From Planctomycetota bacterium (GTDB lineage Bacteria > Planctomycetota > UBA11346), in NCBI GenBank assembly GCA_038213805.1, contig JBBQSO010000067.1:1-29392 (forward strand): a stretch of 29,392 nt of DNA, given 5' to 3'. The notes below the pieces were generated by a model, which did no database searches, was not told the origin of the DNA, and worked only from the letters and a program-made list of their open reading frames with translations. The first letter of the stretch is position 1, and the number at the start of each line of letters is the position of its first letter. Below are positions 2,030 through 25,752 of this stretch, in pieces. The position numbers were made by a program, and so were the translations under genes.

Positions 2030-6091
<4,062 letters not shown>

Positions 6092-6173
6092 ACGGACGCA
6101 TCTGGCCGGTCCTGCGACGCGCATGCCCGCGAGCATCGGACCCGCGACCAGCCGCTGGAAGCAGGACCTGAAG

Positions 6174-7847
6174 ATGTCGAAAGTCCTGGTCGTCGACGAT
6201 AATCCGTCCATTTGCACGTCTCTCGCCGCGATCTTGGATAGTGTAGGGCACGATATCGAGACGGCGCTCAGTGGAGAGGCGGCCAGGTCGCTGCTCGGAA
6301 ACGCTCATTTCGATGTGGTCATAACGGACATCTCCATGGGCGGCATCACCGGGATCGAATTGCTGGATCATGTCCAGCGGTCGAATCCCGATACCTGCGT
6401 CCTGATCATGACCGGCGATCCGACCATCGAGACGGCGACCAAAGCCCTGCATGGCGGCGCCTTCGACTACCTGGTGAAACCGATCCATCCCGAAGTGGTG
6501 CGACGAGCGGTCACGCGGGCTGCTGGCATCAAGGAACTGAAGGCGCAGAAGCGACTACTCGAACGTGACAATCTCGCCTACCAGAATCGTCTCGAGCAGA
6601 TGGTCGGTGAGCGAACTGCCGCGCTGCGCGACAGCGAGGCGCGACTTGCGGGAATCATCGGCGTCGCCCCGGTCGGGATATACGTCAGTCACGGCGGGAT
6701 CATCCGTGATGCGAATCCGGCCTTCTGCACCATGCTCGGTTATACCAAGGGTGAGCTCATCGACAGCGACGAGCGGCTGCTCTACCCGTCCAGGGAACAC
6801 CATGAGCGCATCAATGGAGAACGCGATCACGCCATCACCAGGGAAGGCGTAGCCCGTCTGACGGTCGATATGCAGAGCAAAGATGGGGAGATCCGGAAAA
6901 TCCACATGCAAGTGGCTCCTATGACCGGCCACGGCGAGGACGCAGCTCTCACCCTCGTCGCCCAGGACGTGACCGACCAATTGCGCCTGCAGGCCGAACT
7001 CGATCACGGCGCTGCTGCGCTGCGCCAAGCGCAAAAAATGGATAGCATCGGACGATTGGCCGCCGGCATCGCCCATGAGATCAATACGCCATCGCAGTTC
7101 GTGCTCGACAATCTGCACTTCATGCGCGATGCATTCCAGGATATCCTACGTCTGCTGTCAGCGGATGCGGACCTGCGTGCAGCCGCGATGACTCGCGGAG
7201 AACCGCTGGCTGAGGCGGCCGCCGAGATCGCGGCGACGATCGACATCGGATACCTGGCCGAGGAAGTCCCCAAAAGTCTGGGCCAGACGATGGAAGGGAT
7301 GGAGCGCATCGCGAAGATCGTGCTCGCGATGAAGGAATTCTCCCATCCCGCGGAATCCAAGTCGTCGGCTGACATCAATCACCTCATCGAGAATTCCCTC
7401 ACCATCAGTCGCAATGAGTGGAAGTACGTGGCGACCGCCACCCTCACGCTCGATCCCGGATTGCCACGGGTCGATTGCGTCTCAAGTGAGATAAGCCAGG
7501 TCCTGCTCAACCTGATCGTCAATGCCAGCCATGCGATCGCTGAAGCCATACCGCGAGATGCGAAGGAGCTCGGAACGATCGACATCATGACGAGCCACGC
7601 TGACGCATGGGTTGAGATACGCATTGGCGATAGCGGCTGCGGTGTCGCCCCAGACATCCGCGAGCGGATCTTCGAGCCGTTTTTCACCACCAAGGCGATC
7701 GGCAGGGGGACCGGGCAGGGGCTGGCCATGGCATGGTCGGTCATCGTCGACAAGCACTTCGGAACGATCGACCTGGAGAGCCAGGTCGGCGTTGGCACCG
7801 TGTTCATCATCCGGCTGCCGATCGACGGCCAGAAATCCGCGTCATGA
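6174..7847 (+). CDS. REC-PAS-HisKA-HATPase hybrid kinase (NtrB-like kinase core)
   Basis: VLVVDD..ITDISM..YLVKP receiver; PAS ending QDVTD; H-box LAAGIAHEINTP; NLIVNASHAI; FFTTK; GTGQGL. ATG 6174 preferred over 6123 because AGGA lies just upstream and the receiver starts there. Confidence 0.93.
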   Translation: MSKVLVVDDNPSICTSLAAILDSVGHDIETALSGEAARSLLGNAHFDVVITDISMGGITGIELLDHVQRSNPDTCVLIMTGDPTIETATKALHGGAFDYLVKPIHPEVVRRAVTRAAGIKELKAQKRLLERDNLAYQNRLEQMVGERTAALRDSEARLAGIIGVAPVGIYVSHGGIIRDANPAFCTMLGYTKGELIDSDERLLYPSREHHERINGERDHAITREGVARLTVDMQSKDGEIRKIHMQVAPMTGHGEDAALTLVAQDVTDQLRLQAELDHGAAALRQAQKMDSIGRLAAGIAHEINTPSQFVLDNLHFMRDAFQDILRLLSADADLRAAAMTRGEPLAEAAAEIAATIDIGYLAEEVPKSLGQTMEGMERIAKIVLAMKEFSHPAESKSSADINHLIENSLTISRNEWKYVATATLTLDPGLPRVDCVSSEISQVLLNLIVNASHAIAEAIPRDAKELGTIDIMTSHADAWVEIRIGDSGCGVAPDIRERIFEPFFTTKAIGRGTGQGLAMAWSVIVDKHFGTIDLESQVGVGTVFIIRLPIDGQKSAS

Positions 7848-7986
7848 CCGACGCGGTGCAGTCGACGGGCACCGCGCCGCGCAGCGCCCGACGGCCCGTG
7901 AGGCCGTCCAGTCGCCGGGACCGACCGGCACATCCATCAGTGGATTGCGGCTTCCTCCGGATGCGCGCAACGATTAGGGTGGGGTT

Positions 7987-10900
7987 GTGAGTACCGAACC
8001 CACTGCGATTGGGATGCCAGGCAGTGAGTTGGCCGCTTTGTTGCAATTGCTCGGGCAAGCGGAAGCCGCCCTGAGCACGCACCTGGTAGAGGCCGACAGT
8101 CCCGGCCAACATGGCGCGACTGCAGCACTGCGGGCAGTGGGAGAGCGCCTGCGCGCCACGGTTGAGAGGCTCCAGAAGCAGGTCGATCTCCAGACCGCGA
8201 TCATCGAAGCACTGCCTTCCCACATCGCCTTGGTGGGCGCCGATGGGGTCATCACCGCCGTCAACGCCGCGTGGCGCCGTTTCGCCGCGGCCAATCACCT
8301 TCCGGACCCGGCCTGCGGCGTGGGACAGCATTACCTGCTGGTATGTGAGCGGGAGCGCCACGACCAGCCAACCGGCGCACAGGTCGTAGGCATCGGCCTC
8401 CGCCGTGTGCTGGAAGGTCAATTGCAGGATTTCACCCACGAATATCCCTGCCACGCGCAGAATGAACGGCGTTGGTTCCTTTTGACGATCACGCCTCTGA
8501 GCGCCGAACGACGAGTCGGTGCCGTAATCGCCCATACCAACATCACCGAGCGGAAGATCGCTGAAATCGCGTTGCAGGAAAGTGAGATGCATTTTCGCAC
8601 CACCTTTGAGCAGGCCGCCGTCGGGGTCGCCCACGTCGCCGCCGACGGTCGTTTCCATCAGGTGAACGAGCGGCTTTGCGCCATGCTCGGATTCACCAAC
8701 GAAGAACTCTGCCGACAGACATTCGCAGAACTCAGTTTCCCGGATTGCCGTGCCCTAGCCGAAGCCGCACGCCAGGAGATGCTGGCAGGAAACCAATCGT
8801 CATACTCTGCGGAAATGCGCTATCGACGCAAGAATGGCGAGGCGCTCTGGGTCAACCTGGTCACCACCGTGGTCCGCCGCCAATCCCAGCCTCCGTATTT
8901 CATCTCCGTACTGGAGGATATCACCGCGCGCAGGACTGGGGATCTCCGCCTGCAGCGCATCAATCGGCTGTATCTGGTGCTGAGCAAGATCGGTGCGGCC
9001 ATCGTCAAGGCGAAAAAACCCGCTCAGCTCTACGGCCAGGTGTGCCGGATCATGGTCGACGATGGGCGGTTCCGCATCGCACTCATCGCCGAGGCGGAGC
9101 CGGACGACGAGAAGGTCCGCACGATCGCCGTGGCAGGCGAAACCGGTGACTACCTGAACAGCTTCATCAACTCCCAGGAACAGCACGGCGTCCACTCCAA
9201 TGGGCCCCTTGGCACGGCGCTTCGCAGTGGTCGCTATGATGTCTGCAACGACTTCACGCAGGATCCGCGCATGGCATCCTGGCAGGCTGCCGCGGCCACC
9301 AACCACCTGCGCGCGGCGGCGGCGTTTCCTCTCGCCGCTGATGGCGTGGTCACCACGGCCCTTGTGCTGTTTTCTGAGGAGGTGGATTATTTCCGCGAAG
9401 ATGAGATCGCCTTGATGGTCGCCGTCGGCGACAATATCTCGTTCGCCCTCGATGCCATGCTCAAGGAGCGGCTGCGCATCGCGGTCGAGCGATCCCTGCG
9501 AGACAGCGAGCGCCGGTTCCGCGCCCTGAGCGACCAGAGCGCCGATGGAATCTCGCTCATCGATGCCAACAACCACATCCTCTACCTGAGTCCTTCCGTT
9601 GCGACCATCGAAGGGTATTCCCCGGCAGAACTCGTCGGCCGGCAGGGGTTGGAGAACACCCATCCGGACGACGTCCCATTCGTCCAGCGGACCATCGCCG
9701 AGCTGCTGGCCAGCCCCGGAAAGCCGGTACCGGTCCTCTGGCGAAGGCGCCACAAGGACGGGCATTGGCTGTGGCTGGAGGGAATCTCCACCAATCTGCT
9801 CAATGACCCCGCGGTATCCGCCATTGTGACGAACTATCGGGATGTGACTGAGCGGAAAAGCGCCGAGGCCGAGCTGCAGCACAGCCAGGGTCTGCTGCGC
9901 ATGGCGAGTCGACTCGGTCGCATAGGCGCCTGGACACTCGAGGTTCCGACATTGACCGTGACCTGGTCCGACGAGATCAAAGAGATCCACGAGGTGCCAG
10001 GCGATTTCGTCCCGGTGATCGATTGCGCGCTCGACTTCTATCCGCCTGAACATCGGCCACAGATCACCAGCGCCGTCGATGCATGCCTGCGCGAAGGGCA
10101 GCCTTTCGACGTCGAACTGCAGATTATCACGGCCAAGGGACGCCGCGTATGGGTGCGCAGCATCGGCGAAGCGGTGCGTGACCAGCGGGGGACGATCACG
10201 CGTATCCAAGGGGCATTCCAGGACATCTCCGAACGCCGGCAGGCGGCGGAGGACCACCGGCTTATCGCGGAACGGCTCACCACCACCCTGGAAAGCATCA
10301 CCGAGGCATTCTACACCATCGATCGGGATTGGCGCTTCACCTACGTGAACCAGCAGGCCGAGCTGATCCTGCGCCGGCATCGGCGCGCGCTCATCGGGAG
10401 GGTGATCTGGGATGAATTTCCGGAATTCCGGGAAACCACCCTGCGTCGCCGGGTCGAACAGGCGATGCACGACAACGCTTCCGTGCAATTCCAGGATCAT
10501 CATGCGCCATTCGATGCCTGGTACGATATCCGGATCTATCCGTCAGCTCAGGGATTGGCCATCTACATCAGCGATATCACCGAGCAGCAGCGCGCGCGCG
10601 AGGCAGTCAGGATCAGCGAAGAGCGCTTCCGCCTTCTGGCCAAGGCGACCAACGACGCGATCTGGGATTGGAACGTGGTCCGCAATGACCTGTGGTGGAA
10701 TGAGGGGTTGGAGACACTCTTCGGCTACGGGTCCGAGGAGGTCGATTCGACGCTCGAGTTCTGGTCCACGCGCATCCATCCAGAGGATCAGCGGCGCGTG
10801 ACGGACAGCGTCGACCACGCCATCCGGACAGGCGCCCAGGTCTGGTCCCAGGACTATCGTTTCCGCCACAAGGACGGCAGTTACGCCTACGTCACGGATC

Positions 10901-12489
10901 GCGGGCACCTCATCCGCGATGCCGCCGGGCAGGCCATCCGCATGATCGGCGGGATGAACGACCTCACAGCGCGCAAGCGGGCGGATGAGCGGATCGCTGA
11001 ACAGGCGGCTCTCCTGGATGAGGCCAGGGATGCCATCTCGGTACGCGACCTGCGCCATCATACCACCTACATGAACAAAGGCGCCGAGCGGGTCTATGGC
11101 TGGACCGCGGCCGAAGTCATGGGCAGGTCATTCCGCGACCTCGTCTACAAGGATCCGACCGCATTCAACACGGCCATCGCAGCGGTCCTGGAGCACGGCG
11201 AGTGGATAGGTGAGCTGTCGCCGATCAACAAGGCTGGCCAACAGCTGCTGATCGAAGCTCGCTGGTCATTGGTCCGCGATCATGCCGGACAGCCAAGCGC
11301 GATCCTGAGCATCTGCACTGATATCTCCGAGAAGCGCAAGATCGAGAAGCAGTTCCTGCGGGCCCAACGCCTGGAGAGCATCGGCACCCTGGCCGGCGGA
11401 ATCGCGCATGATCTCAACAATGTGCTGACCCCCATCCTGCTTTCCATCAACCTGCTGATGACCGGTGAGACCGATAAGCGCCGACTGCGCACCCTTTCCA
11501 TCATCGATGCCAGCGCTCAGCGTGGCGCAGACATGGTCAAGCAGGTGCTATCCTTCGCCCGCGGCGTCGAAGGCCAGCGGCTGCCGGTGGACATCAGGCA
11601 GCTGATCCGCGACATCGAAAAAGTCATCAATGACACGTTCCTGAAGAACATCCAGGTGCGCACCGCCATCGACCCCGAGATCGATGCCGTGATCGGCGAT
11701 GTGACGCAGATCCATCAGGTGCTGCTCAACCTGTGCGTCAACGCGCGTGATGCCATGCCGGATGGCGGGGCGCTGACGCTGTCGGCGGAGAACGTCGTCC
11801 TGGATGAGCATTATGCGCGGCTGAATGTGGATGCGAAGGCCGGGTCCTATGTGCTCATCCGGATCGAAGACACCGGGACCGGCATCCCCACCGATATCAT
11901 GGAGAAGATTTTCGAGCCTTTTTTCACCACCAAGGATATCGATAAGGGCACTGGCCTGGGATTGTCGACGTCGTTGGCCGTGGCGAGGAGCCATGGTGGA
12001 TTCATGCGTGTGTACAGCGAACCAGGTCGGGGCTCCACTTTCACCCTCTACCTTCCATCGGTGACCGCTGCGAGCGCGGGGGTCTCCTCGAGGGAGGGCC
12101 TGGCGCTGCCCAGGGGCAACGGTGAGCTGATCCTGGTTGTCGATGATGAGGAGGCCGTCCGTCAACTGACCCGGCAGATCCTCGAGGCCTTCGGGTACCG
12201 GGTCCTCCTCGCCATCGATGGCAGCGATGCGATCGCGCTTTTCGCCGTGCAGCAACACGACATTTCCCTGGTCCTGACGGACATGATGATGCCCATCATG
12301 GATGGAAACGCGGTCATCCGCGTGCTGATGAAATTGCGACCCGACGTGCGCCTCATCGCCGCCAGCGGCTTGCATGAAAATCATGTGGTGGCCAAGGCGA
12401 TGAGCGGCGGGGTGAAGCACTTCCTCACGAAGCCCTATACTGCCGAATCATTGCTGGTGCTCATCCGCAAGGCGCTTACCGCGACGTGA
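7987..12489 (+). CDS. Cytoplasmic multi-sensor hybrid kinase: 2 PAS-GAF-5 PAS-HisKA-HATPase-REC (CckA-like core; 1500 aa)
   Basis: Seven PAS/PAC units ending NITERK, DITAR, DVTERK, DISERR, DITEQQ, DLTARK, DISEKR; GAF after the second; H-box LAGGIAHDLNN; NLCVNARDAM; receiver LTDMMMP..FLTKPY. GTG start is uncertain. Confidence 0.94.
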   Translation: MSTEPTAIGMPGSELAALLQLLGQAEAALSTHLVEADSPGQHGATAALRAVGERLRATVERLQKQVDLQTAIIEALPSHIALVGADGVITAVNAAWRRFAAANHLPDPACGVGQHYLLVCERERHDQPTGAQVVGIGLRRVLEGQLQDFTHEYPCHAQNERRWFLLTITPLSAERRVGAVIAHTNITERKIAEIALQESEMHFRTTFEQAAVGVAHVAADGRFHQVNERLCAMLGFTNEELCRQTFAELSFPDCRALAEAARQEMLAGNQSSYSAEMRYRRKNGEALWVNLVTTVVRRQSQPPYFISVLEDITARRTGDLRLQRINRLYLVLSKIGAAIVKAKKPAQLYGQVCRIMVDDGRFRIALIAEAEPDDEKVRTIAVAGETGDYLNSFINSQEQHGVHSNGPLGTALRSGRYDVCNDFTQDPRMASWQAAAATNHLRAAAAFPLAADGVVTTALVLFSEEVDYFREDEIALMVAVGDNISFALDAMLKERLRIAVERSLRDSERRFRALSDQSADGISLIDANNHILYLSPSVATIEGYSPAELVGRQGLENTHPDDVPFVQRTIAELLASPGKPVPVLWRRRHKDGHWLWLEGISTNLLNDPAVSAIVTNYRDVTERKSAEAELQHSQGLLRMASRLGRIGAWTLEVPTLTVTWSDEIKEIHEVPGDFVPVIDCALDFYPPEHRPQITSAVDACLREGQPFDVELQIITAKGRRVWVRSIGEAVRDQRGTITRIQGAFQDISERRQAAEDHRLIAERLTTTLESITEAFYTIDRDWRFTYVNQQAELILRRHRRALIGRVIWDEFPEFRETTLRRRVEQAMHDNASVQFQDHHAPFDAWYDIRIYPSAQGLAIYISDITEQQRAREAVRISEERFRLLAKATNDAIWDWNVVRNDLWWNEGLETLFGYGSEEVDSTLEFWSTRIHPEDQRRVTDSVDHAIRTGAQVWSQDYRFRHKDGSYAYVTDRGHLIRDAAGQAIRMIGGMNDLTARKRADERIAEQAALLDEARDAISVRDLRHHTTYMNKGAERVYGWTAAEVMGRSFRDLVYKDPTAFNTAIAAVLEHGEWIGELSPINKAGQQLLIEARWSLVRDHAGQPSAILSICTDISEKRKIEKQFLRAQRLESIGTLAGGIAHDLNNVLTPILLSINLLMTGETDKRRLRTLSIIDASAQRGADMVKQVLSFARGVEGQRLPVDIRQLIRDIEKVINDTFLKNIQVRTAIDPEIDAVIGDVTQIHQVLLNLCVNARDAMPDGGALTLSAENVVLDEHYARLNVDAKAGSYVLIRIEDTGTGIPTDIMEKIFEPFFTTKDIDKGTGLGLSTSLAVARSHGGFMRVYSEPGRGSTFTLYLPSVTAASAGVSSREGLALPRGNGELILVVDDEEAVRQLTRQILEAFGYRVLLAIDGSDAIALFAVQQHDISLVLTDMMMPIMDGNAVIRVLMKLRPDVRLIAASGLHENHVVAKAMSGGVKHFLTKPYTAESLLVLIRKALTAT

Positions 12490-12605: not shown

Positions 12606-13094
12606 CTACCTCACGGGTCCCGCGAGGGGCAGGCGGATGATGAAGACGGTGCCCCTGCCGATTCCGGTTTCGTAGGCCAGCGTGCCGCCGTGCTTCGTCA
12701 CCACCACGGTGTTGGCGATGTAGAGCCCCTGGCCGGTGCCCTTGCCTACGTCCTTGGTGGTGAAGAAGGGATCGAAGATCTTGTCGCGCACGGCCTCGGG
12801 GATGCCGGTTCCGGAATCGCGGATGCGGACTTCGGCGCAGGCCCCGTCTCGCCGTGTCGAGATGGTGATGGTGCCCTTACCGCCTGATGTGGCGATGACG
12901 TCGCCGATGGCATGCGCGGCATTGACCAGCAGGTTGAGGATGACCTGCTTGAATTCGCCAACGAGCAAGGGTACCGCAGGCAGATCGTCGGAGAACTCGG
13001 TGATCAGCTCAGCAACGGATTTGTATTCGTTGCGGGCGACGATCAGCGTGTTTCTTATGGACTCGTTCAGGTCGGTCGGTTTCATTTCGCCCTG
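12606..13094 (-). pseudogene. 5'-truncated histidine kinase (HATPase domain only)
   Basis: QGEMKPTDLNESIRNTL..ARNEYK..NLLVNAAHAI..DSGTGI..FFTTK..GTGQGL..GTVFIIRLP, same subfamily as the C-terminus of 6174-7847. No H-box upstream in frame; kinase-like sequence stops at about 13094. Confidence 0.85.
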
Positions 13095-13309
13095 GCGTCG
13101 TCGCCAGAGGCGGTCATCACCACCGGCTTGGGCCGGTCGGCAGCGCCGAAGCCCGCCACGCGATCGCTCAGGTGGATGATGGTTTTCGCCCGACTCTGGC
13201 CCTGACGGGGTGCTGGCTTGGAGGGGTGTGGCGATGATCCGATATGGGCGGTACAGTTTCCCATGGGTCGGACATATCCCCATGAACCCCTATGAAAGGA
13301 ACCCCTCCC

Positions 13310-13636
13310 ATGACCATCCGCACCTGCGCCATCCCGCTCCTGACCCTGGTTTTCGGCCTGTCCATGCAGGCTGCAGAGGGGGATGGAGCGCATGCCACTG
13401 CCACTGCAACTGCCACCGGAACCGTCAGCGCCGTCAACGTCGAGAAGAAGTCCTTCACCCTTGTCGAAGATGGTTCGCAGAAGACGGAAGCGTACCGGCC
13501 GTTCTACGCGGGCGGTGACCAGGGCAAGATGGCCGTCAGGATCCCCACGCTGACCGTTGGCGAGCACGTTGAGGTGGCCTATACGATCAAAGAGGGGCGC
13601 CGCGCCCTGGCCATCACCGACGTCGCCGCGAAGTGA
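13310..13636 (+). CDS. Small secreted protein (108 aa): signal peptide, Ala/Thr linker, about 70-aa beta-rich (OB-fold-like) domain
   Basis: AAAGGA 9 nt before ATG 13310; N-terminus MTIRTCAIPLLTLVFGLSMQA-AEG looks like a Sec signal; domain TGTV..FTL..VGEHVEVAY..EGRRAL. Its similarity to the anti-sigma C-terminus supports that it is a real gene. Confidence 0.85.
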   Translation: MTIRTCAIPLLTLVFGLSMQAAEGDGAHATATATATGTVSAVNVEKKSFTLVEDGSQKTEAYRPFYAGGDQGKMAVRIPTLTVGEHVEVAYTIKEGRRALAITDVAAK

Positions 13637-13660
13637 CGGACGCGGACGTCCGGTTCCACC

Positions 13661-14188
13661 ATGACCCAACCTGACGTCCCTGCAGCGGCGCACCGGCCGC
13701 CGCTGCAGGTCCTGCTCGCGGAGCGCGGCATCCTGCTGGCCTACATCAACGTGATGCTGCATGACCTGCACGGCGCGGAGGACATCCTCCAGGAAGCCTT
13801 GCTGCTTGCCATGGACCAGGATTTCGGCGACGCCGACCACGCGCGTGCGTGGATCCGCGTGACCGCGCGGAACCTTACTTTCGCGGAACGACGCCGACGT
13901 GGGCGCGGCGCCTATTTGTCCGATGATCTTCTGGACCTACTCGACACCGCTTGGCGCGAAGAGACTGTGAACGCAGCGCACGCCGACCGGATCGTTGCAC
14001 TACAAGCCTGCCGTGATGCGTTGTCGGCGGCGGCGCGGCGCCTCATCGACCTGCGCTTCGTCGAGGGTCTCGACGGACAGGCCATCGCTGCGCGCCTGGG
14101 TCGGCCGCTGAACACCGTCTACGTCGGTCTCAGCCGCACCTACCGCCGCCTGGCCGACTGCATCCAGCGCCGCCTGGGGGACGCATGA
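13661..14188 (+). CDS. ECF RNA polymerase sigma factor (Rhodopirellula/Verrucomicrobium-type)
   Basis: Region 2 LAYINVMLHDLHGAEDILQE..AWIRVTARN; region 4 HTH LDGQAIAARLGRPLNTVYVGLSRTYRRLADCI; ATGA overlap with the anti-sigma gene. Confidence 0.93.
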   Translation: MTQPDVPAAAHRPPLQVLLAERGILLAYINVMLHDLHGAEDILQEALLLAMDQDFGDADHARAWIRVTARNLTFAERRRRGRGAYLSDDLLDLLDTAWREETVNAAHADRIVALQACRDALSAAARRLIDLRFVEGLDGQAIAARLGRPLNTVYVGLSRTYRRLADCIQRRLGDA

Positions 14189-15276
14189 ACTCGCGCAGCG
14201 ACGACGACCTGATGGTCCGCTACATTGAAGGCGCGGCTTCCGCGGAAGAGGTGACGCTGCTCGAGACCAGGCTGCGTACCGATCCCGGTGCGCGCCGCGA
14301 ATTCGTGCGCCTCGCCCACGTTCAGGCGCTGTTCGTGGATCTGCCGAGGGCTTCGGTGGTGATCGACGCGACCTCACCTCCCTTTCGGCGTTGGCATGTG
14401 GCGCGCGCGGCCGGCCTCGTCGCGGCCGCACTCGTGCTTGTCGCGATCGCACTCGTCGCGCGACCAGCGCGCTCCGGCGTGGCGACCGTCACCGCCCTGC
14501 AGGGCGCGGTGCGGTGCCTGCGTGAGCAGGATGTGGTACCGCTCCGCGTGGGAGACGCCGTGCAGCCCGGTGATCAGTTCGCACTCGCCGGATTCTCGAC
14601 CCTCAGTGTGTCGTGGGCTGGAGAGGTCAGCGTCGACGTCGAGCAATACAGCATTCTGACCGTGGGCGGCGAGGGGGCATCGACCATCTATCTGTCGAGT
14701 GGTGCGGTGCACGCCGTGGTCATCAGCCATAGCGGGAACGCGTTCGCCATCGCCACCGCGGATGGCGTCGCCCGTGACCTTGGCACGGACTTCATCGTGC
14801 ACTGTGATGCGGGTGGCACGGCCGTCCAAGTCGCGGCCGGTCTGGTCATGCTGGAAAACGCGCTGGGACGGGTGACGGTCCCGGCGGGGAGATCGGCTTC
14901 CCTGCACGCAGGTCGCGCACCAGCGTTGGAGATTGTGCCCCCGCACGGGCAGTCCGCAGGCCAACGGCAGCCCGCGCCAGCGACGATTCCGGCGCCCGCG
15001 GTCCGTCCGCCACCGCCACCGCCACCACTCGTCGACGTCACATCTCCGTCGTCCACCGGGACGGTCACGCACCTCGATGGGCAGCGCCGCGCATTCACCC
15101 TGCGTGACGACCGTTCTGGAGAAACCAGCGAATACCGTGCGCATTTTGCCGGCGGACATGCCGAGGCCATCGTCGCTCGCATCGCCTCGCTCCAGGTCGG
15201 GGAGCACCTGACCGTGGGCTACATCGAGCAGGAGGGGCGTCGGGCGCTGTCCATCGTCACTACACCTCCGCCGTGA
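14185..15276 (+). CDS. FecR-type transmembrane anti-sigma factor with Pro-rich linker and C-terminal copy of the upstream secreted domain
   Basis: N-terminal anti-sigma helices (LMVRYIEGAASAEEVTLLE..DPGARREF); TM AAGLVAAALVLVAIALVA; FecR signature LSSGAVHA..FAIATADGVARDLGTDF..VQVAAGLV; PAPA..PPPPPPP linker; terminal domain TGTV..EGRRALSI. Confidence 0.9.
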   Translation: MNSRSDDDLMVRYIEGAASAEEVTLLETRLRTDPGARREFVRLAHVQALFVDLPRASVVIDATSPPFRRWHVARAAGLVAAALVLVAIALVARPARSGVATVTALQGAVRCLREQDVVPLRVGDAVQPGDQFALAGFSTLSVSWAGEVSVDVEQYSILTVGGEGASTIYLSSGAVHAVVISHSGNAFAIATADGVARDLGTDFIVHCDAGGTAVQVAAGLVMLENALGRVTVPAGRSASLHAGRAPALEIVPPHGQSAGQRQPAPATIPAPAVRPPPPPPPLVDVTSPSSTGTVTHLDGQRRAFTLRDDRSGETSEYRAHFAGGHAEAIVARIASLQVGEHLTVGYIEQEGRRALSIVTTPPP

Positions 15277-15339
15277 GAGAGATGACGGCCGGCGCGAATG
15301 CTCATGGCCATTCGCGCGAGCCGACACTCCCGCTCTGCG

Positions 15340-15566
15340 GCGATGAAGTGGTCCAATAGATTGCAGAGGAGGATCGTCATCTCGCCAATGCGGGTTGGCT
15401 TCTCGATCCACCCGCTGCGCACCGGGGCATCCGCGCGTGGCGCTGCGCCGCCAACAACCATGGTCGCGAGGTTGTTGAAGGCCGGCTCCGCGAGCATCCA
15501 CGCGCCCAGTTGCGCGTCCCGTGAGCGGGACAGGTACTGATCGCGGATGACGAAGTCGAGCGCGAC
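15340..15566 (-). pseudogene. Degenerate receiver-domain remnant
   Basis: Minus frame VALDFVIRDQYLSRSRDAQLGAWMLAEPAFNNLATMVVGG..GWIEKPTRIGEMTILLCNLL follows REC beta3-alpha5 (D-x-x-x-x-D and KP). An in-frame TAA at 15567-15569 lies immediately upstream; no intact N-terminus. Confidence 0.55.
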
Positions 15567-15617
15567 TTATTCAAGTCATTTAAAGGCAATGAATTACACA
15601 GCCTCTAGTCGATAAGG

Positions 15618-15646
15618 TTTGCATACTAATGATTCGCTCTGATATT
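15618..15646 (+). promoter_or_regulatory. Putative sigma-70 promoter (TTGCAT-N16-GATATT) overlapped by pseudopalindromic MarR operator TTTGC-AT-ACTAA
   Basis: AT-rich patch in high-GC DNA directly upstream of the MarR gene; TTTGCATACTAA 15618-15629 is pseudopalindromic; -10-like hexamer 15641-15646 ends 7 nt before ATG 15654. Confidence 0.5.
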
Positions 15647-15653
15647 GATTTTC

Positions 15654-16193
15654 ATGCTCGAAAATGTCACGCATGAGGAGCAGACGACCGCTTCGGAGCC
15701 GTGGGTCATCACCATCCTGCGCTCGCTGCGGCAGATCCTGCGCCGCGTCGAACTCGGGTCGCATGATCTCGAAGTCGCGCACGGGGTCACCCAGCCGCAG
15801 CTCATCTGCCTGCGCACCATCGCCACGTCGGAGCGGTTGACCCAGGTCGAGCTCGCGCGCGCCGTCTACCTCAGCGCCAGCACCCTGGTCGGCATCATCG
15901 ATCGGCTCGAACACAAGGGGCTGGTGGAGCGGACCCGCGACCACGCGGACCGCCGTCGTATCTTCCTGACCCTCACCAGGTCAGGGAAAGAGAAGGTGCG
16001 CGTGGCTCCGGAGCCCTTGCATCAGCGCGTCCAGCGCGCGCTCATCGGCATGAATCCCGATGAGCTGGCCACCATGGCATCGTCCCTGGGGCGCCTCGTC
16101 GAGCTGCTGGAAGCGCGTGACGAAGACGCCACGCCCATCCTCGCCAGCGGCCCGATCCCCAAGCCCGCCGCGCTCGACGGCGGTCCGCACTGA
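15654..16193 (+). CDS. MarR-family regulator, EctR/CosR-like
   Basis: ILRSLRQILR..GVTQPQL..ELARAVYLSASTLVGIIDRLEHKGLVER..DRRRIFLTLT..G winged helix; APEPL and C-terminal DATPIL resemble the EctR/CosR subfamily. Confidence 0.9.
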   Translation: MLENVTHEEQTTASEPWVITILRSLRQILRRVELGSHDLEVAHGVTQPQLICLRTIATSERLTQVELARAVYLSASTLVGIIDRLEHKGLVERTRDHADRRRIFLTLTRSGKEKVRVAPEPLHQRVQRALIGMNPDELATMASSLGRLVELLEARDEDATPILASGPIPKPAALDGGPH

Positions 16194-16239
16194 CGTGCTG
16201 ATGGTTTCGGCGCACCTCATCCCTCGCAGATCCCCTGCC

Positions 16240-16902
16240 ATGACCAGCCACTCGACCAGCCATCCGGTCCGCCTGACCGTCGGCCACCATCCGCGTCCAG
16301 CATCCGGCCCCATCGCGCAGCTGCTGAGCACGGACGTGGTCACCATGGACTGGACGGTTTCACGCCTGACCGGAGCGCCAAGCACGACCCGCCACGCTGC
16401 GACCGTGCTGGCGATGATCGAAACTGGCGAACCGCGCCTGACGGCGCAGCTCGCCGACGAATTGCGCCGCGGCATCCTGCCGCTGGTGCCCGCCGCCTTG
16501 GACCACCCCGGACTTATCCGGGACGCCTTCGCGCGCATCATCGGCGACCTCGCGGAGGATGAGTCCGCGGCCCTGGCGATCATCACTTGGCCGCGTTGCC
16601 GCATCGCCGCGGTCGGCGGCGGCCGCATCGCCATCCAGCGACAGCGACGGGTCAATGTCATCGAGCCGCAGCCCGAGGCGCGCATCCGCACGCAGTCTCT
16701 GGAGCTGCGGCGCGGCGATTGGCTGGTGATGCTGGCGCCGTCGACTGCCGCGGCCCTGCACCTTGGGGCGATCGGCATCGCCACCGGTCGCCAGACCGGC
16801 GCGGCGGCGGTCTGCCGCGCGCTGGTCGACCGGGCGGCGGCGGACGACCCACCCGGGCCGCACGCCGCCATCGCCGTGCACGCGGCGCCACTGCTGGACT
16901 GA
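16240..16902 (+). CDS. Hypothetical protein with degenerate PP2C/PPM phosphatase-like pattern
   Basis: IAAVGGGRIAIQR (cf. VGDSR), LELRRGDWLVMLAPS (cf. GD.lll.SDG), AAAVCRALVDRAAADDPPGPHAAIAV (cf. LV..A...GG.DNIT). Alternative in-frame start at ATG 16201. Confidence 0.65.
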   Translation: MTSHSTSHPVRLTVGHHPRPASGPIAQLLSTDVVTMDWTVSRLTGAPSTTRHAATVLAMIETGEPRLTAQLADELRRGILPLVPAALDHPGLIRDAFARIIGDLAEDESAALAIITWPRCRIAAVGGGRIAIQRQRRVNVIEPQPEARIRTQSLELRRGDWLVMLAPSTAAALHLGAIGIATGRQTGAAAVCRALVDRAAADDPPGPHAAIAVHAAPLLD

Positions 16903-16985
16903 CGGCGGGGCGCGCCGGGTTCCGCTGCGCGTCCGCGACCGTCCCGCCACCGCATCCCCGCACGGATGCCAGACAAGGCCAACGC

Positions 16986-19154
16986 ATGTCGAAGACCTGG
17001 ATCGTCTCCAACCGTCTGCCGTGGACCTGCGCGCGCGATGCCGCGGGCCTGCCGCATCTGGTGCGCAGCCCCGGCGGACTGGTCGCGGCCATGCTGCCGG
17101 TCCACCAGGCGGGCGCTGCCCACTGGGTCGGGCACGGCGGCTTTCCCGCCGACACCCCGGGTCTGGCGCAGCTGTTGGAGGAGCAGCGGCTCATCGATGT
17201 GGTCATCAGCGCCGACGACTACGCGGGCTACTACAATGGCGCGGCCAATGGCTGCCTGTGGCCGATCTTCCACTACTTCCCCGCCCTCGCCCGCTTCGAT
17301 CAGGCGGGATGGGAGGCGTACCGGCGCGTGAACCGGGTCTTCGCGGCGGCGCTGCTCGAGAAGGTCGGGCCCGGCGACCTGGTGTGGATCCACGACTACC
17401 AGTTGATGCTCCTGCCTCAGTTGCTGCGCGAAGCGCTGCCCGACCTGCGCATCGGCTATTTCCACCACATCCCCTTCCCGGCCTCGGAGGTGTTCAAGCT
17501 GCTGCCCTGGCGCGAAGAGATCGCCAATGGCCTGCTGGGCGCCGACCTGGTCGGCTTCCACACTCTCGAGTACGCGCGCCACTTCGCCTCGGTGGCCGGG
17601 CGCCTGATGGGGCTGGAGGTCCGCGGCGAGGACATCCACCACGGCGACCGCACGGTGCGCACCGGCGCCTTCCCGCTCGGGATCGACGTCCATGGCCTCA
17701 CCGAGGCGATGCGCAGCGACCGTCACCGCGAAACCCTCGCCGATCTGGAGCGGACCTTCACCGGGCGTCGGCTGGTGCTGGGCGTCGATCGTCTCGACTA
17801 CACCAAGGGCATCCGCGAACGCCTCGAAGCCTTCGCCCACTACCTGCGCGCCCACCCCGAGGCGCGCGCCGACACCGTCCTGCTGCTGTTGTGCGTCCCG
17901 TCGCGCATCGAGGTCGGTCCCTATTCCGACCTGCGTCTGGAGATCGAGCAGCTGGTCAGCCGCATCAACGGCGAATTCGGCACCACCGCCAATCAGCCGG
18001 TCCACTACCTCTTCCAGAGCCGCGGGCTGCCGGAGCTGACCGCGCTCTATCGGCGTGCCGACGTCTGCCTGGTGACGCCTCTGCGCGACGGCCTCAACCT
18101 GGTGAGCAAGGAGTATTGCGCGGTGCGCGAGGACCTCGAAGGCATGCTGATCATCAGCGAGTTCGCTGGCGCCTCAGAGGAGCTGGGTGAGGCGCTGGTG
18201 GTCAACCCCTTCGCCACCGGCGAAGTGGCGGCGGCCATCCATCAGGCCCTGCACATGGATCAGCGCGAGCGTCGCGCGCGCATGGCGATCCTGCGCCGGC
18301 GCGTGCTTGAGGCGGACAACCGCGCCTGGGCCAACCAGTTCATCACCGCGCTGGACGCGGTGGCCACGATCAACCGCCAGCACGCCTCGCGCCGCCTGGA
18401 GAACCCCGCCGAGGCCGCCGAGCTGGTCGCGCGCCTCGATGGCGCGGCGCGGATCCTGGTCGCGATCGACGGCAGCGCCTTCGAGGCGCGGCCCGCCCAG
18501 CGTCACGAGCTTGAGCGCCTGGTGGCGTCGCTACGCCAGCGTTATGGTGCCCGCTGCGCCATAGTGCTCATCGCCGGCGCAGAGGTGGACGTCGGCTGGC
18601 CCCTGAAAGCGCTGTGGCTGGCTGGCGAGTTCGGGGCGACGCTCCAGCCACCAGGGGGCCCGGTGGTTGAACAGGCCGCTGGCCTGGGTGACCTCGGCTC
18701 GCACCATGGCGAGATCCTGCGCATCCTGGGCGAGTTGGAGCGCAAGGTGCCGCGCTCCCGCACTGTGGCCGGCCGCGCCACCCTGACCTGGACGATGGGC
18801 CGGACGACTTCGGACATGGCCAAGGTCATGCTCAACGAGACCCGCCACGCCATCTCGCTGATGCTCGAGCGCAGTGCGTGGTTCTGCGCCGGCATCCACC
18901 GCGGCCTGGCGGTGCGCTGCGGGACGTGCGGTCCGGCGCAGGCCATCGAGCGGGTGCTGGCGGCCCTGCCGGACGGGGAGGGTGCCACCCTGCTGAGCAT
19001 TGGTGATCGCTTCACCGACGAGGCGGTCTTCAACCTGCACCGTGAACGCAACTGTTCGGTGGCCATCGCCACTCCGGCGACGACCGCGGACTACCTGGTG
19101 GCGGACGCGCACGCGCTGGCCTGCATCCTTGCAGCTCCTGGAGAGCGGTCATGA
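16986..19154 (+). CDS. otsA: Trehalose-6-phosphate synthase (GT20) fused to a degenerate trehalose-phosphatase-like HAD domain (722 aa)
   Basis: [62 protein letters not shown]-terminal HAD remnants [21 protein letters not shown]. Confidence 0.95.
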
Positions 19155-19909
19155 ACGCCCGCGACCTCGACTGCGCGGAGGGTCTGGCCATGCTCCGGCG
19201 CGCGGTTGGGGACCGCTGGTTGCTCGCCTTCGACTTCGACGGCACCTTGGCTCCGCTGGTCGATGACCCGCATGCCGCCGCCATGCCGGCGGCGCTGTGC
19301 GCGGACCTGACCGCGCTGGCGCATTTGCGGCAGGTGGCGGTGGTCACCGGCCGGGCGCGCGCCGACGTCCTGCCGCGCCTGCCGGCCAGCCTCGCGCAGG
19401 TGGTCGGCAATCACGGCTGTGAGCGCGGGGAGGGCAATGCCGCCGGCCTCGCAGCCGCGACCGCGATGGCGGCGGGGTGGCTCGTGCGCCTGGACCATCT
19501 GCTGCGCGGCACGGGCCTGCGCGTCGAAGCGAAGGGGCCGAGCCTGACCCTGCACTGGCGTGGCAGCCGCGATCCGCTGGCCAGCGCGATCCTGGCGCAT
19601 GACCTTGCTCTGCAGCTGTCGCCGCGACCTGATCTCATCCCTGGCGACCACGTGTTGAATCTGATTCCGCCCGGTCTGCCGGACAAGGGTGCGGCCATGC
19701 GCGATCTGCTGGCCCGGTGCGATTGTCCGGCGGCGCTGTTCGTCGGCGACGATCTGACCGACGCCGCGGTGTTCAGGTTGGATGATCCGCGCATCGTCGG
19801 CATCGCGGTGGGCAGTCGGCCGCTGGGTGCGCAGTGGCGCGTCGCCGATGCCGGGGCGGTCGCCGCCCTGGTCCGAGATCTGGTGCTGATGTGTGGTGCC
19901 GGCCCATGA
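19151..19909 (+). CDS. otsB: Trehalose-6-phosphate phosphatase (HAD IIB)
   Basis: FDFDGTLAP, VVTGR, VGNHG, DKGAA, FVGDDLTD all intact; ATGA overlap with otsA. Confidence 0.93.
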   Translation: MNARDLDCAEGLAMLRRAVGDRWLLAFDFDGTLAPLVDDPHAAAMPAALCADLTALAHLRQVAVVTGRARADVLPRLPASLAQVVGNHGCERGEGNAAGLAAATAMAAGWLVRLDHLLRGTGLRVEAKGPSLTLHWRGSRDPLASAILAHDLALQLSPRPDLIPGDHVLNLIPPGLPDKGAAMRDLLARCDCPAALFVGDDLTDAAVFRLDDPRIVGIAVGSRPLGAQWRVADAGAVAALVRDLVLMCGAGP

Positions 19910-19964
19910 GCGCCACCGCCCCGAAACGCGCGGGTGCTTCCGGATCGTGGTGGGATTCACGACC

Positions 19965-21182
19965 ATGATGCCGCTCCTGGCGTCCTTCAATCCGGACGAT
20001 TTGCCGCCGGAGCTCTGGTACATCCTGCTCGTCCTCGGGCTGTTTTTCGTGCCGCACATCCTGCAGCGTTGGCGCCTGCCGGTGCCGCTCGGTGCGCTCG
20101 GACTGGGCGCCCTTGCCGGCATGGGCTGCGGCTGGTTCCAGCAGGACGGCACCGTCCACCTGCTCGCCACCTTCGGGATCGTTTCGCTGTTTCTGCTCGC
20201 CGGCCTTGAGGTGGACTTCTCGGAACTGCGCCGTCATGCCCACGTGCTGGTCCGCCACCTGCTGCTGCGCGCCGCGGTGCTGGCCCTGTCCGCCTGGGCG
20301 CTCGGCGTCGTCCTGCACCTGGAACCCCGGCCGGCGCTGATCATGGCGTTGGCGCTGCTCACGCCATCGGTGGGCTTCATCCTCAGTTCGCTGCCGCGCC
20401 TCGGTCTGGCACCCGAGGAGGCGCTCCAGGTCAAGCTGCACGCGATCGGCGGCGAAATGCTCGCGCTGACCGTGCTGTTCTTCTGCGTGCAGTCGGTCAC
20501 CGGGCAGCGCCTGGCGGTTAACTCCGTCGCCCTGGTGGGGTTGATCGCGGTGTTGCCGCTGGTCTTCTGGCTCTTCGCCCGCCACATCCTGCCGCATGCG
20601 CCGCGCACCGAGTTCGCTTTCCTGCTCATCATCGCGATTGCCTGCGCGTGGACGACGCGCGCCCTGGGCGCCTACTACCTGCTCGGCGCCTTCATCGCCG
20701 GCTTGGTGGCGGCGCGCACCGGACGCCTGCTGCCGGAACTGGTCGAACCACGTCTGCTGCACGCGATCGAGCTCTTCGCCGCATTCTTCATCCCCTTCTA
20801 CTTCTTCTCTGCCGGACTCGACCTCGGGCCTGAGGATTTCTCACCCACCGCCCTCGCCACCGGCGGCATCCTGCTCGCCGCGTTCGTGCCCACGCGCATG
20901 GTCCAGGGGCTGATCATGCGCAGCTGGCGGTCGGGACGGCCGGTGCGGCCGGATCTGCGCATCGCCACCGCGCTGCTGCCCACCCTGGTCTTCACCTTGG
21001 TGCTGGCGCGCATCCTGCGCGACCAGTTCGCGCTTTCCGCGGACCTCTACGGGGCGCTCATCGTCTACGCCCTGGTCACCACCCTGATCCCCGGTTTCCT
21101 GCTCGCCGTCGCGCCGGACTACACCACCCCGACCGCGACCATCGCCCGCGGCCGCAGCGGCGATGGCGGGGGGGCGCCATGA
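19965..21182 (+). CDS. Cation:proton antiporter (CPA2/Kef-like, no C-terminal RCK domain)
   Basis: Many hydrophobic helices; LATFGIVSLFLLAGLEVD, LLGAFIAGL, FFIPFYFFSAGL signatures. Start at ATG 19965 or 19968. Confidence 0.88.
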   Translation: MMPLLASFNPDDLPPELWYILLVLGLFFVPHILQRWRLPVPLGALGLGALAGMGCGWFQQDGTVHLLATFGIVSLFLLAGLEVDFSELRRHAHVLVRHLLLRAAVLALSAWALGVVLHLEPRPALIMALALLTPSVGFILSSLPRLGLAPEEALQVKLHAIGGEMLALTVLFFCVQSVTGQRLAVNSVALVGLIAVLPLVFWLFARHILPHAPRTEFAFLLIIAIACAWTTRALGAYYLLGAFIAGLVAARTGRLLPELVEPRLLHAIELFAAFFIPFYFFSAGLDLGPEDFSPTALATGGILLAAFVPTRMVQGLIMRSWRSGRPVRPDLRIATALLPTLVFTLVLARILRDQFALSADLYGALIVYALVTTLIPGFLLAVAPDYTTPTATIARGRSGDGGGAP

Positions 21183-25490: not shown

Positions 25491-25752
25491 GCGAGGCGAT
25501 CTTGCAATCGCCCTTTCCGGACAATGCTTTACCGGGTCTGGTCTGCGGCAGCGTGACGCCCAACGCCAACTGTTGGGCGGCCCGGCCCAAGGATTGTGGT
25601 GGCGGTGGTCCCGGCCCGGCCGGGAGAACGGAGCGTAGCGCGGTGAGTCTCCATCCGGCACCGTCCACAGCGCTGCGGCAGGGCATGACGCGGGGGGAGC
25701 GCGGCACGCAAAGCAGCGGGCGCGCGCCGCTGTGGGTTGCGGGTGGCAGCCG

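Follow-up and report, generated by a model that had tools for sequence, protein, structure and literature searches.

An autoregulated ECF/FecR operon candidate from an uncultured planctomycete in which the anti-sigma factor ends in a paralogue of the operon's own secreted protein

In the cell-surface signaling systems FecI-FecR-FecA and FoxI-FoxR-FoxA, an extracytoplasmic function (ECF) sigma factor is paired with a single-pass anti-sigma factor that has a periplasmic FecR domain and a sensing end at its C-terminus. For FoxI-FoxR-FoxA, PMC11637429 reports that the product of a sigma target binds the C-terminal end of the anti-sigma factor and protects it from proteolysis, and that FoxR cleaves itself at Gly191-Thr192. 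In Clostridium thermocellum, according to PMC4711584, RsgI6 carries at its C-terminus a GH10 module with 57% identity to Xyn10D, the xyn10D promoter is recognized by sigma-I6, and the sigma operon is autoregulated. Here, a locus that resembles these systems is described in a DNA stretch of 29,392 nucleotides from an uncultured bog lineage of the Planctomycetota (contig JBBQSO010000067.1 of assembly GCA_038213805.1; the whole stretch is referred to as the window). It contains the genes for a small, predicted secreted protein, an ECF sigma factor and a FecR-type anti-sigma factor, and the C-terminal domain of the anti-sigma factor (the tethered copy) is a paralogue of the small protein (the free copy). 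The genome of the window (G000, 5.5 Mb, 90% complete) was compared with one of the same genus (G004) and one of another genus (G026), and the pairing of free and tethered copies was counted in these three. The three-gene switch, found in uncultured bog planctomycetes, is rare.

By sequence homology, the FecI/FecR cell-surface signaling systems are the closest relatives of this locus. The differences lie in the sensing end, since here the C-terminal part of the anti-sigma factor is a predicted OB fold behind a disordered linker, and the candidate partner is a soluble protein paralogous to the sensor. No match to Plug, TonB_dep_Rec or STN, and thus no transducer of the FecA type, was found among the window open reading frames (ORFs) scanned, in line with an earlier sequence-only reading of the window that had noticed no TonB-dependent receptor. 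Since the G000 genome holds 24 FecR frames (23 of them over the cut-off) against a single STN signaling-domain match, most of its FecR anti-sigma factors are without an evident outer-membrane transducer partner.

The likeness to SigI/RsgI concerns the design. In RsgI6/Xyn10D (PMC4711584) and in the locus described here, an extracytoplasmic C-terminal sensor module is a paralogue of a secreted protein of the system's own regulon. SigI/RsgI systems combine sigma-I, RsgI and CBM/GH modules in Firmicutes, have large regulons and keep the paralogue elsewhere in the genome, whereas here an ECF sigma factor, a FecR protein and an OB fold are found in Planctomycetota, with the paralogue in the same operon as its first gene and apparently its only output. 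With a sigma factor of the ECF type and an anti-sigma factor of the FecR type, the locus is not a member of the SigI/RsgI group. The sequence-only reading had known of no description of this arrangement for this domain; that holds for the domain, of which the literature search found no account in anti-sigma factors, but the design has a precedent in RsgI6/Xyn10D, as described in PMC4711584. What is new here is the sensor domain and the minimal closed-loop arrangement, while the design principle is already known.

Other described systems share single traits with the locus. RpoE-RseA-RseB and AlgU-MucA-MucB are also operons of a sigma factor, a membrane anti-sigma factor and a co-transcribed periplasmic protein that possibly modulates the system, and RseB shields RseA from the outside. 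However, RseB is unrelated to the periplasmic domain of RseA and its regulon is large, whereas the small protein described here is a paralogue of the anti-sigma domain, and its gene comes first and carries the candidate promoter. Small periplasmic OB folds that occur free or fused to a larger envelope protein are known from CusF, SilF and the C-terminal domain of SilB, and in CopZ/CopA a ligand is handed over between homologous free and tethered domains. In contrast to the CusF group, the domain described here has no significant sequence match to it and no evident Met/His/Trp metal site, and the likeness may be that of the general OB fold only, because the best fold matches are the cytoplasmic proteins SSB and PriB. 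An OB fold has also been described for the surface-exposed C-terminal domain of TcdC, a putative anti-sigma factor of Clostridioides difficile (bioRxiv 10.1101/872283). TcdC is likened here by description only, and differs in having no paralogous secreted partner and in belonging with a different sigma family.

The relationship between the two copies is clear at the protein level. The stretches 13415-13615 and 15055-15255 translate exactly to the two peptides that the sequence-only reading had aligned, with 31 of 67 residues identical and no gaps, and the identities cluster, as it had stated, in TGTV, FTL, YR..AGG, L.VGEH and EGRRAL. None of 100,000 shuffles of one peptide reached 31 identities (maximum 16), and BLASTP of the whole free protein against the whole anti-sigma factor gave 31/69 identities and 48/69 positives without gaps (E 2e-18). 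DNA of 64-69% G+C, as found at the operon, commonly yields long spurious ORFs, and a chance similarity or an annotation artefact was therefore considered. It was rejected on the shuffles and the E-value and deserves practically no credence, given that both genes have homologues with conserved length and motifs, that the models are confident, and that the adjoining sigma factor and FecR domain have Pfam matches. The DNA of the two copies is identical at 111 of 201 positions. Since third codon positions match far less often (24/67, 36%) than second positions (46/67), the duplication is an old one that has been kept by protein-level selection, and neither a recent repeat nor a gene conversion. 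A domain tree was built from 30 rows (16 free, 8 tethered and 6 distant outgroup domains; the remaining distant multi-domain matches were left out, and the tethered domain of G004 was represented by its close relative P0012). In this tree, the six free copies of the window type form a clade that excludes all tethered copies (support 97/98), and the tethered copy of the window is not sister to its operon partner. The tethered copies require three changes on the best tree, of which strongly supported branches force only one; the tree is thus compatible with a single origin of the tethered copies but does not demand it.

The three genes lie in the same direction on the forward strand (Table 1). 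Because all homologues and the database gene call (P0004, 108 aa) begin at that Met, the free gene likely starts at the ATG at 13310 and an upstream ATG at 13292 is an unlikely start; the end point 15276 of the sequence-only reading is the end of the anti-sigma stop codon, and its starting point is likely the true ATG. AAGGA-like stretches are present at the site equivalent to that of the ribosome-binding stretch in the free gene of G004 and in both free genes of G026. The sigma gene begins 24 nt past the stop of the free gene and shares the ATGA at its 3' end with the start of the anti-sigma gene. The spacer of the free and sigma genes was also assessed for an RNA hairpin that might act as an attenuator, with a result no better than that of shuffled sequence (z 0.43 in the window and -0.16 in G004). 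The sigma factor (175 aa) has only the sigma-2 and sigma-4 regions, with Pfam matches to Sigma70_r4_2 (31.5 bits, cut-off 25.7, E 1.4e-7) and, under the 24-bit cut-off, to Sigma70_r2 (21.3 bits, E 2.3e-4). In NCBIfam, it scores above the cut-off for TIGR02937 (sigma70-ECF; 48.3 bits, cut-off 42.9) and below it for TIGR02989, the Rhodopirellula/Verrucomicrobium subfamily (98.5 bits, cut-off 124.55). The anti-sigma factor, encoded beside it, is a single-pass protein with an N-terminal helical domain and a periplasmic FecR domain (PF04773, residues 146-221, 33.3 bits, cut-off 24, E 6.7e-8). In its AlphaFold2 (AF2) model, built on 8 homologues, the N-terminal helical domain (3-51) corresponds to the best conserved part of the alignment, the helix at 72-91 is the only hydropathy peak, and Gly200-Thr201 in the FecR domain is invariant in 8/8 aligned anti-sigma factors. 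The tethered copy is predicted to be extracytoplasmic because it follows one transmembrane (TM) helix, the beta-rich FecR domain and then a disordered linker; the same is predicted for the free copy because its domain is preceded by an Ala/Thr-rich stretch and, before that, by a hydrophobic signal-like segment at the N-terminus. This location, which had been expected from the flexible linkers, is consistent with the topology and the linker confidence (pLDDT <50).

Both copies are predicted with high confidence to be OB folds, and the free and tethered domains have an identical predicted order of beta1-3, helix and beta4-5. In the AF2 model of the free protein, the domain blocks mostly have pLDDT >90, with an average of 73 in block 71-80. 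When this model was compared with 48,161 PDB representatives using VIA-align, the best match was the SSB of Streptomyces coelicolor (4dam; Z 10.0, rmsd 2.2 over 76 residues), followed by other SSB and PriB proteins, with the SilB C-terminal domain (Z 8.4) and SilF (Z 7.7) below them. Foldseek against PDB gave nothing at E 1e-3 or better, and OB folds including SilF and CusF at about 1e-2. By sequence, the domain is an unnamed family. Pfam gave only a sub-threshold DUF1344 match (PF07076; 16.9 against 23.1 bits, over 23 residues), which does not place it in that family, the family profile found only two chance-level rows in PDB (E 0.52 and 0.71), and the NCBIfam scan had no match for the free protein. 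In the ESM Atlas, the best score was 0.89, under the 0.9 lead level, with all hits annotated as "hypothetical protein" and DUF5666 at rank 15 with 25% of members. A search of literature full text, with supplementary tables that possibly list such groups outside its scope, found no account of the domain in anti-sigma factors. The ECF re-classification paper PMC7826278 treats FecR and Planctomycetes, and its accessible part does not mention CusF or TGTACA. The expectation that the domain is not a described family was thus borne out. In the narrow subfamily to which both copies belong, 13 positions are invariant and common to free and tethered copies; the polar residues Y68, R69, E101, R103 and R104 are among those kept in free and tethered copies alike, and they map to strand 3 and the beta4-beta5 turn of the free-protein model, a location that, on this model, would correspond to the usual OB ligand face.

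A candidate promoter for the operon was recognized from a shared motif. It reads GTACAG, 13-14 nt and GACATA and was defined on the sequences that precede the free gene in G000 and G004 and the sigma gene in G026; the genomes were searched with the pattern GTACAGN{13,15}GACAKA, in which K comes from the reading of the first G026 free copy. In the 5.5-Mb genome G000, the pattern has one forward and no reverse match (reversed-pattern control 0 and 1), and this match is still the single one when up to 1 mismatch is allowed (control 1 and 1). G004 has two matches, one of which is 31 nt upstream of the free gene; the second falls within an ATP-grasp gene that runs on the other strand, and was taken as chance. 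All three matches in G026 fall in the module, upstream of free copy 1 (49 nt), of the sigma gene and, on another contig, of free copy 2 (30 nt), and the last is independent, having had no part in defining the motif. Aligning the five upstream regions gave 16 invariant columns, including a GTACAGT run and GACA. No sigma-70-like promoter was found in 12900-15800, and a search for RNA sequencing runs over 13200-15300 found none. We infer that the motif is the sigma factor's own promoter, in which case the operon would be autoregulated, as the sequence-only reading had supposed; the motif is unique in G000 and also stands before the G026 sigma gene. Because the motif is unique in G000 and precedes free-copy genes in two relatives, the free protein would be the main, and perhaps the only, target of the sigma factor, and in G000 it would be the only output besides the regulators if the motif is the promoter.

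Two side observations concern these promoter regions. The motif of G026 free copy 2 sits inside the 3' end of a DUF2271 gene. In the window, an ORF at 12606-13283 on the reverse strand overlaps the promoter region; it has a complete HATPase_c (residues 111-221), no HisKA and an Arg-rich N-terminal third unlike coding sequence, and probably represents what is left of a truncated histidine kinase, whose start is likely to lie near 13085.

The pairing itself is conserved over a short distance. G004 has the identical operon, with the free gene, the sigma gene and a FecR anti-sigma factor that carries the copy, and the C-terminal copy is kept in 4/4 near-length homologues of the window anti-sigma factor. 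The sigma factor of G026 is 63% identical to that of the window, and its anti-sigma factor has 41% identity over residues 1-250, followed by an unrelated tail of about 250 residues without the domain copy. This tail (L025:7130-7880, forward strand) has no Pfam match and may be genuine coding sequence or the product of an assembly or frame problem. One G026 free copy (P0010) adjoins the sigma/anti-sigma pair and is divergently transcribed; the second is a 131-aa secreted protein on another contig, in an ApbE-PepSY_TM-DUF2271 cluster. A 421-aa "fused" frame on G026 contig C59 was rejected, as the 131-aa free copy lies inside this long spurious frame. Across these genomes, the association of the sigma factor with the free protein extends further than the fusion does. 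The sequence-only reading was to be refuted if homologous loci lacked the pairing, and this is partly the case: the pairing is kept in G004, but in G026 the anti-sigma factor is without the copy while the free gene is still a target.

The wider family was searched with a profile built from the free copies and the window's tethered copy. Among 1.84 billion representative proteins, 72 reached E 1e-3 or better; 18 of them reached 1e-10 and 2 reached 1e-30. The tight subfamily, here called EGRR, is marked by the motifs G-T-V, F-T-L, Y-R and E-G-R-R, and consists of small secreted proteins (P0007, P0010, P0015-P0018, P0021-P0024) and FecR anti-sigma factors of 350-375 aa with the domain at the C-terminus (P0003, P0011-P0013, P0019, P0020, P0025). 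It is present in 3 of the 48 genomes of the window's class, which in the genome collection used is the same group as its order and its family, and an even sample of 401 genomes of the phylum gave, at strong scores, the same three genomes only. A search with a six-row alignment found only G004 and G026 contigs among the species representatives reachable with the patterns used, and the free protein alone found no relative among genome contigs. With the anti-sigma alignment, the G004 contig was the only one found among genome contigs, and metagenome contigs added two copies of the G004 contig and one distant FecR-OB locus, which has no free copy within its 9 kb.

Distant relatives have motifs such as Y-x-P-x-W-x-G-G and E-R-K-R, and are found at the C-terminus of other FecR anti-sigma factors (G022, G051, G048 with 3-4 repeats, G027, P0029 and P0038). 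The genomes G022, G051, G048 and G027, which are 79-98% complete, have no free copy at E 0.01 or better. The distant domain is also present in secreted metagenomic proteins with 2-3 tandem copies and Pro/Ala/Lys-rich linkers (P0027, P0028, P0030, P0031) and in a metagenomic Ser/Thr kinase of 1,151 aa (P0046; Pkinase at 17-272, OB copy at 1071-1148). In two single open frames, P0081 (L007:1314-2516, reverse strand, G034) and P0082 (L035:1689-3089, reverse strand, G021), ECF sigma regions 2 and 4 are followed by a TM-like segment, a Pro-rich linker and one or two distant OB domains, respectively, and these proteins resemble one-component sigma factors that are tethered to the membrane and carry a sensor on the outside. 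By its domain contexts, the wider family points to a sensor module. As a side observation, two loci with weak domain matches have low G+C (L015, G027:C291, 43%; L034, G055:C10, 31%), compared with 58-73%, mostly 63-73%, in other loci of the same family or phylum, and may be bin contamination or foreign DNA.

Table 1. Features of the operon in the window, and the second free copy of G026
Feature	Coordinates	Strand	Basis or remark
Candidate ECF-type promoter GTACAG-N14-GACATA	13251..13276	+	33 nt upstream of the ATG at 13310
Ribosome-binding stretch AAAGGAA, purine-rich	13295..13301	+	9 nt 5' of the ATG at 13310; from sequence
Gene of the free secreted OB-fold protein, 108 aa	13310..13636	+	ORF, translation, homologue starts
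Signal-like segment of the free protein	about 13310-13372	+	Hydrophobic N-terminus
OB domain of the free protein	about 13403-13621	+	AF2 model
ECF sigma factor gene, 175 aa	13661..14188	+	Pfam, NCBIfam
FecR-type anti-sigma factor gene, 363 aa	14185..15276	+	Pfam FecR PF04773; 4 near-length homologues
Cytoplasmic three-helix anti-sigma domain, residues 3-51	14191..14337	+	AF2 helices 3-14, 20-32, 34-51
Single TM helix, residues 72-91	14398..14457	+	Hydropathy peak 2.42; AF2 helix
Periplasmic beta-rich FecR domain, residues 100-249	14482..14931	+	AF2, Pfam
Disordered Pro/Ala-rich linker, residues 252-286	14938..15042	+	pLDDT <50; length differs among homologues
Tethered OB-fold copy, residues 289-359	15049..15261	+	AF2; profile E 2.2e-33; BLASTP E 2e-18
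Second G026 free copy	L026:5596-5991	-	Start overlaps the stop of the DUF2271 gene at 5988-6992 (-)

The explanation that fits these data best, although it is held tentatively and with somewhat less than even confidence, is that the locus is a self-contained autoregulated ECF signaling operon in which both copies bind one periplasmic ligand, resulting in negative feedback. In this proposal, the FecR-type anti-sigma factor would hold the sigma factor at the membrane and would sense the periplasm through its C-terminal OB domain instead of through a TonB-dependent transducer. Ligand on the tethered copy would inactivate the anti-sigma factor, probably by regulated proteolysis as in other FecR-type anti-sigma factors, and the released sigma factor would transcribe the operon from GTACAG-N14-GACATA. 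The sole non-regulatory product, the secreted free paralogue of the sensor domain, would then bind the ligand as a buffer or carrier and so lower the signal. That the tethered form can sense alone is suggested by the distant relatives that end anti-sigma factors without a detected free copy, sigma factors and a kinase, and that the free form can act alone by the G026 free copies, which appear to be sigma targets while the anti-sigma factor has no copy. Because each form seems to work alone and the invariant polar residues are common to both, a shared ligand is favored over mutual binding. The leading guess for the ligand is a metal or an iron species. Hints of iron come from G028, in which DUF2271 is fused to the OB domain (L036:4475-5389, forward strand) within a Fer4-ApbE-PepSY_TM cluster, and from the G026 free copy that closes an ApbE-PepSY_TM-DUF2271 cluster; PMC8238504 implicates PepSY-like/ApbE/DUF2271 clusters in extracytosolic iron reduction and assimilation. 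A hint of a metal is the presence of SilF, CusF and the SilB C-terminal domain among the fold matches.

Several observations weigh against this proposal. The pairing is seen in two species only, both of one genus, the promoter is a candidate read from its sequence motif, and the complex prediction described below argues weakly for direct docking of the two copies. Proteolytic activation is assumed from other FecR proteins, and Gly200-Thr201 is a possible counterpart of the FoxR self-cleavage site. The invariant residues could equally be a protein-protein interface or a structural salt bridge. Regarding the metal, the CusF site is made up of His/Met/Met(/Trp) on strands 2-3, and no Met or Trp is present in residues 54-72 of the free protein (P0001), which, read from the sequence, would correspond to these strands. 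CusF_Ec (PF11604) has no match to P0001 or to the anti-sigma factor P0003 at E up to 1, and only a distant 140-aa relative in G003 scores for it, at 25.3 bits with a cut-off of 27 bits.

The strongest competitor, though on the present evidence an unlikely one, is that the copies dock on each other. The free protein would pair with the tethered OB domain as a pseudo-homodimer and shield the anti-sigma factor from periplasmic proteolysis, much as the signaling domain of FoxA does for FoxR-C or RseB for RseA; a signal that removes or uses up the free protein would expose the anti-sigma factor, the sigma factor would replenish the free protein, and the circuit would gauge how much of its own product is present or occupied. 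The sequence-only reading had proposed a heterodimer check by complex prediction. With the tethered domain (286-363) and the free domain (36-114), each with its own alignment and as one pair, the median complex score was 0.54 and the best of 3 controls 0.04, which supports docking weakly; between runs, no fewer than 94% of the contacts coincide, and the pLDDT of the partner does not fall below 79. In calibration, 116 of 157 solved complexes passed the mark, as did 2 of 215 mismatched pairs; only 18 of the 157, but both mismatches, did so with scores of 0.60 or under. By the grading of the method itself, a score of this size misleads more often than not where docking was not already a likely guess, and paralogues may also be predicted to pair simply by virtue of their likeness. 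Docking is in line with the top fold matches, since SSB and PriB are homo-oligomers, and with the place of the free gene as the first in the operon and its only apparent output. A precedent is the product of a sigma target that binds and protects the C-domain of a FecR-type anti-sigma factor (PMC11637429). On the other hand, the G026 anti-sigma factor is without the copy and yet two free genes are still targets, distant tethered domains occur without a detected free copy, and the copies, now only 45% identical, do not group as sisters, so that there is no sign of concerted evolution. A bolder form of docking, doubtful and given still less credence, is a closed extracytoplasmic homeostat in which the free protein, docked on its tethered paralogue, replaces the signaling domain of a TonB-dependent transducer. 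If true, the anti-sigma factor would read the amount or ligand occupancy of the sigma factor's single product, the locus would be an envelope-side counterpart of the mimicry-based partner switching of cytoplasmic sigma regulators, and the sensing by dozens of receptor-less FecR anti-sigma factors in Planctomycetota could be explained.

It is also conceivable, although improbable, that the copies share ancestry without any functional coupling. The OB domain would then be a common building block of the planctomycete envelope, the free protein merely an effector, and the anti-sigma copy a sensor of something unrelated to the role of the free protein. The modularity of the family, whose domain occurs singly, in tandem and fused to FecR, sigma, kinase and DUF2271 proteins, the age of the duplication, and the free copy and sigma module of G026, which work together without a tethered copy, all fit this. 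However, the tethered copies share with the free targets the narrow EGRR subfamily and its 13 invariant positions, and only 18 representatives of this subfamily exist at E 1e-10 or better among the 1.84 billion proteins; because it is so small, independent recruitment for an unrelated function would be a coincidence. The shared-ligand proposal, in which the tethered domain is inferred to be the sensor, is preferred.

The surroundings of the operon are rich in other signaling genes. Many hybrid histidine kinases and response regulators are encoded at 2030-12489 and 25732-29390. Among them are a protein of 1,353 aa that combines two kinase cores with two receivers (2030-6091) and one of 1,500 aa (7987-12489) in which PAS repeats (five or six matched stretches for each PAS model) are accompanied by GAF, HisKA, HATPase and a receiver domain. 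Directly downstream of the ECF operon, the region 15645-23113 contains genes for a MarR regulator, a trehalose-6-phosphate synthase (GT20), a trehalose phosphatase, a Na+/H+ exchanger and a ClC channel with a CBS domain, and looks like an osmotic or ionic stress cluster.

Made up of a single promoter and a single output gene, together with a sigma factor and an anti-sigma factor whose sensor is paralogous to the output, the locus is about the smallest system of this kind. The predicted pair of sigma factor and promoter is unique in its genome and may serve as an orthogonal switch. The analysis also names a new extracytoplasmic OB-fold sensor module, which ends membrane-tethered sigma factors and a Ser/Thr kinase as well as FecR anti-sigma factors. 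The design in which a sensor is copied from its own regulon is thereby extended from the clostridial SigI/RsgI systems to the ECF/FecR systems of a distant phylum, and the operon provides a compact model for FecR-type sensing without an outer-membrane receptor.

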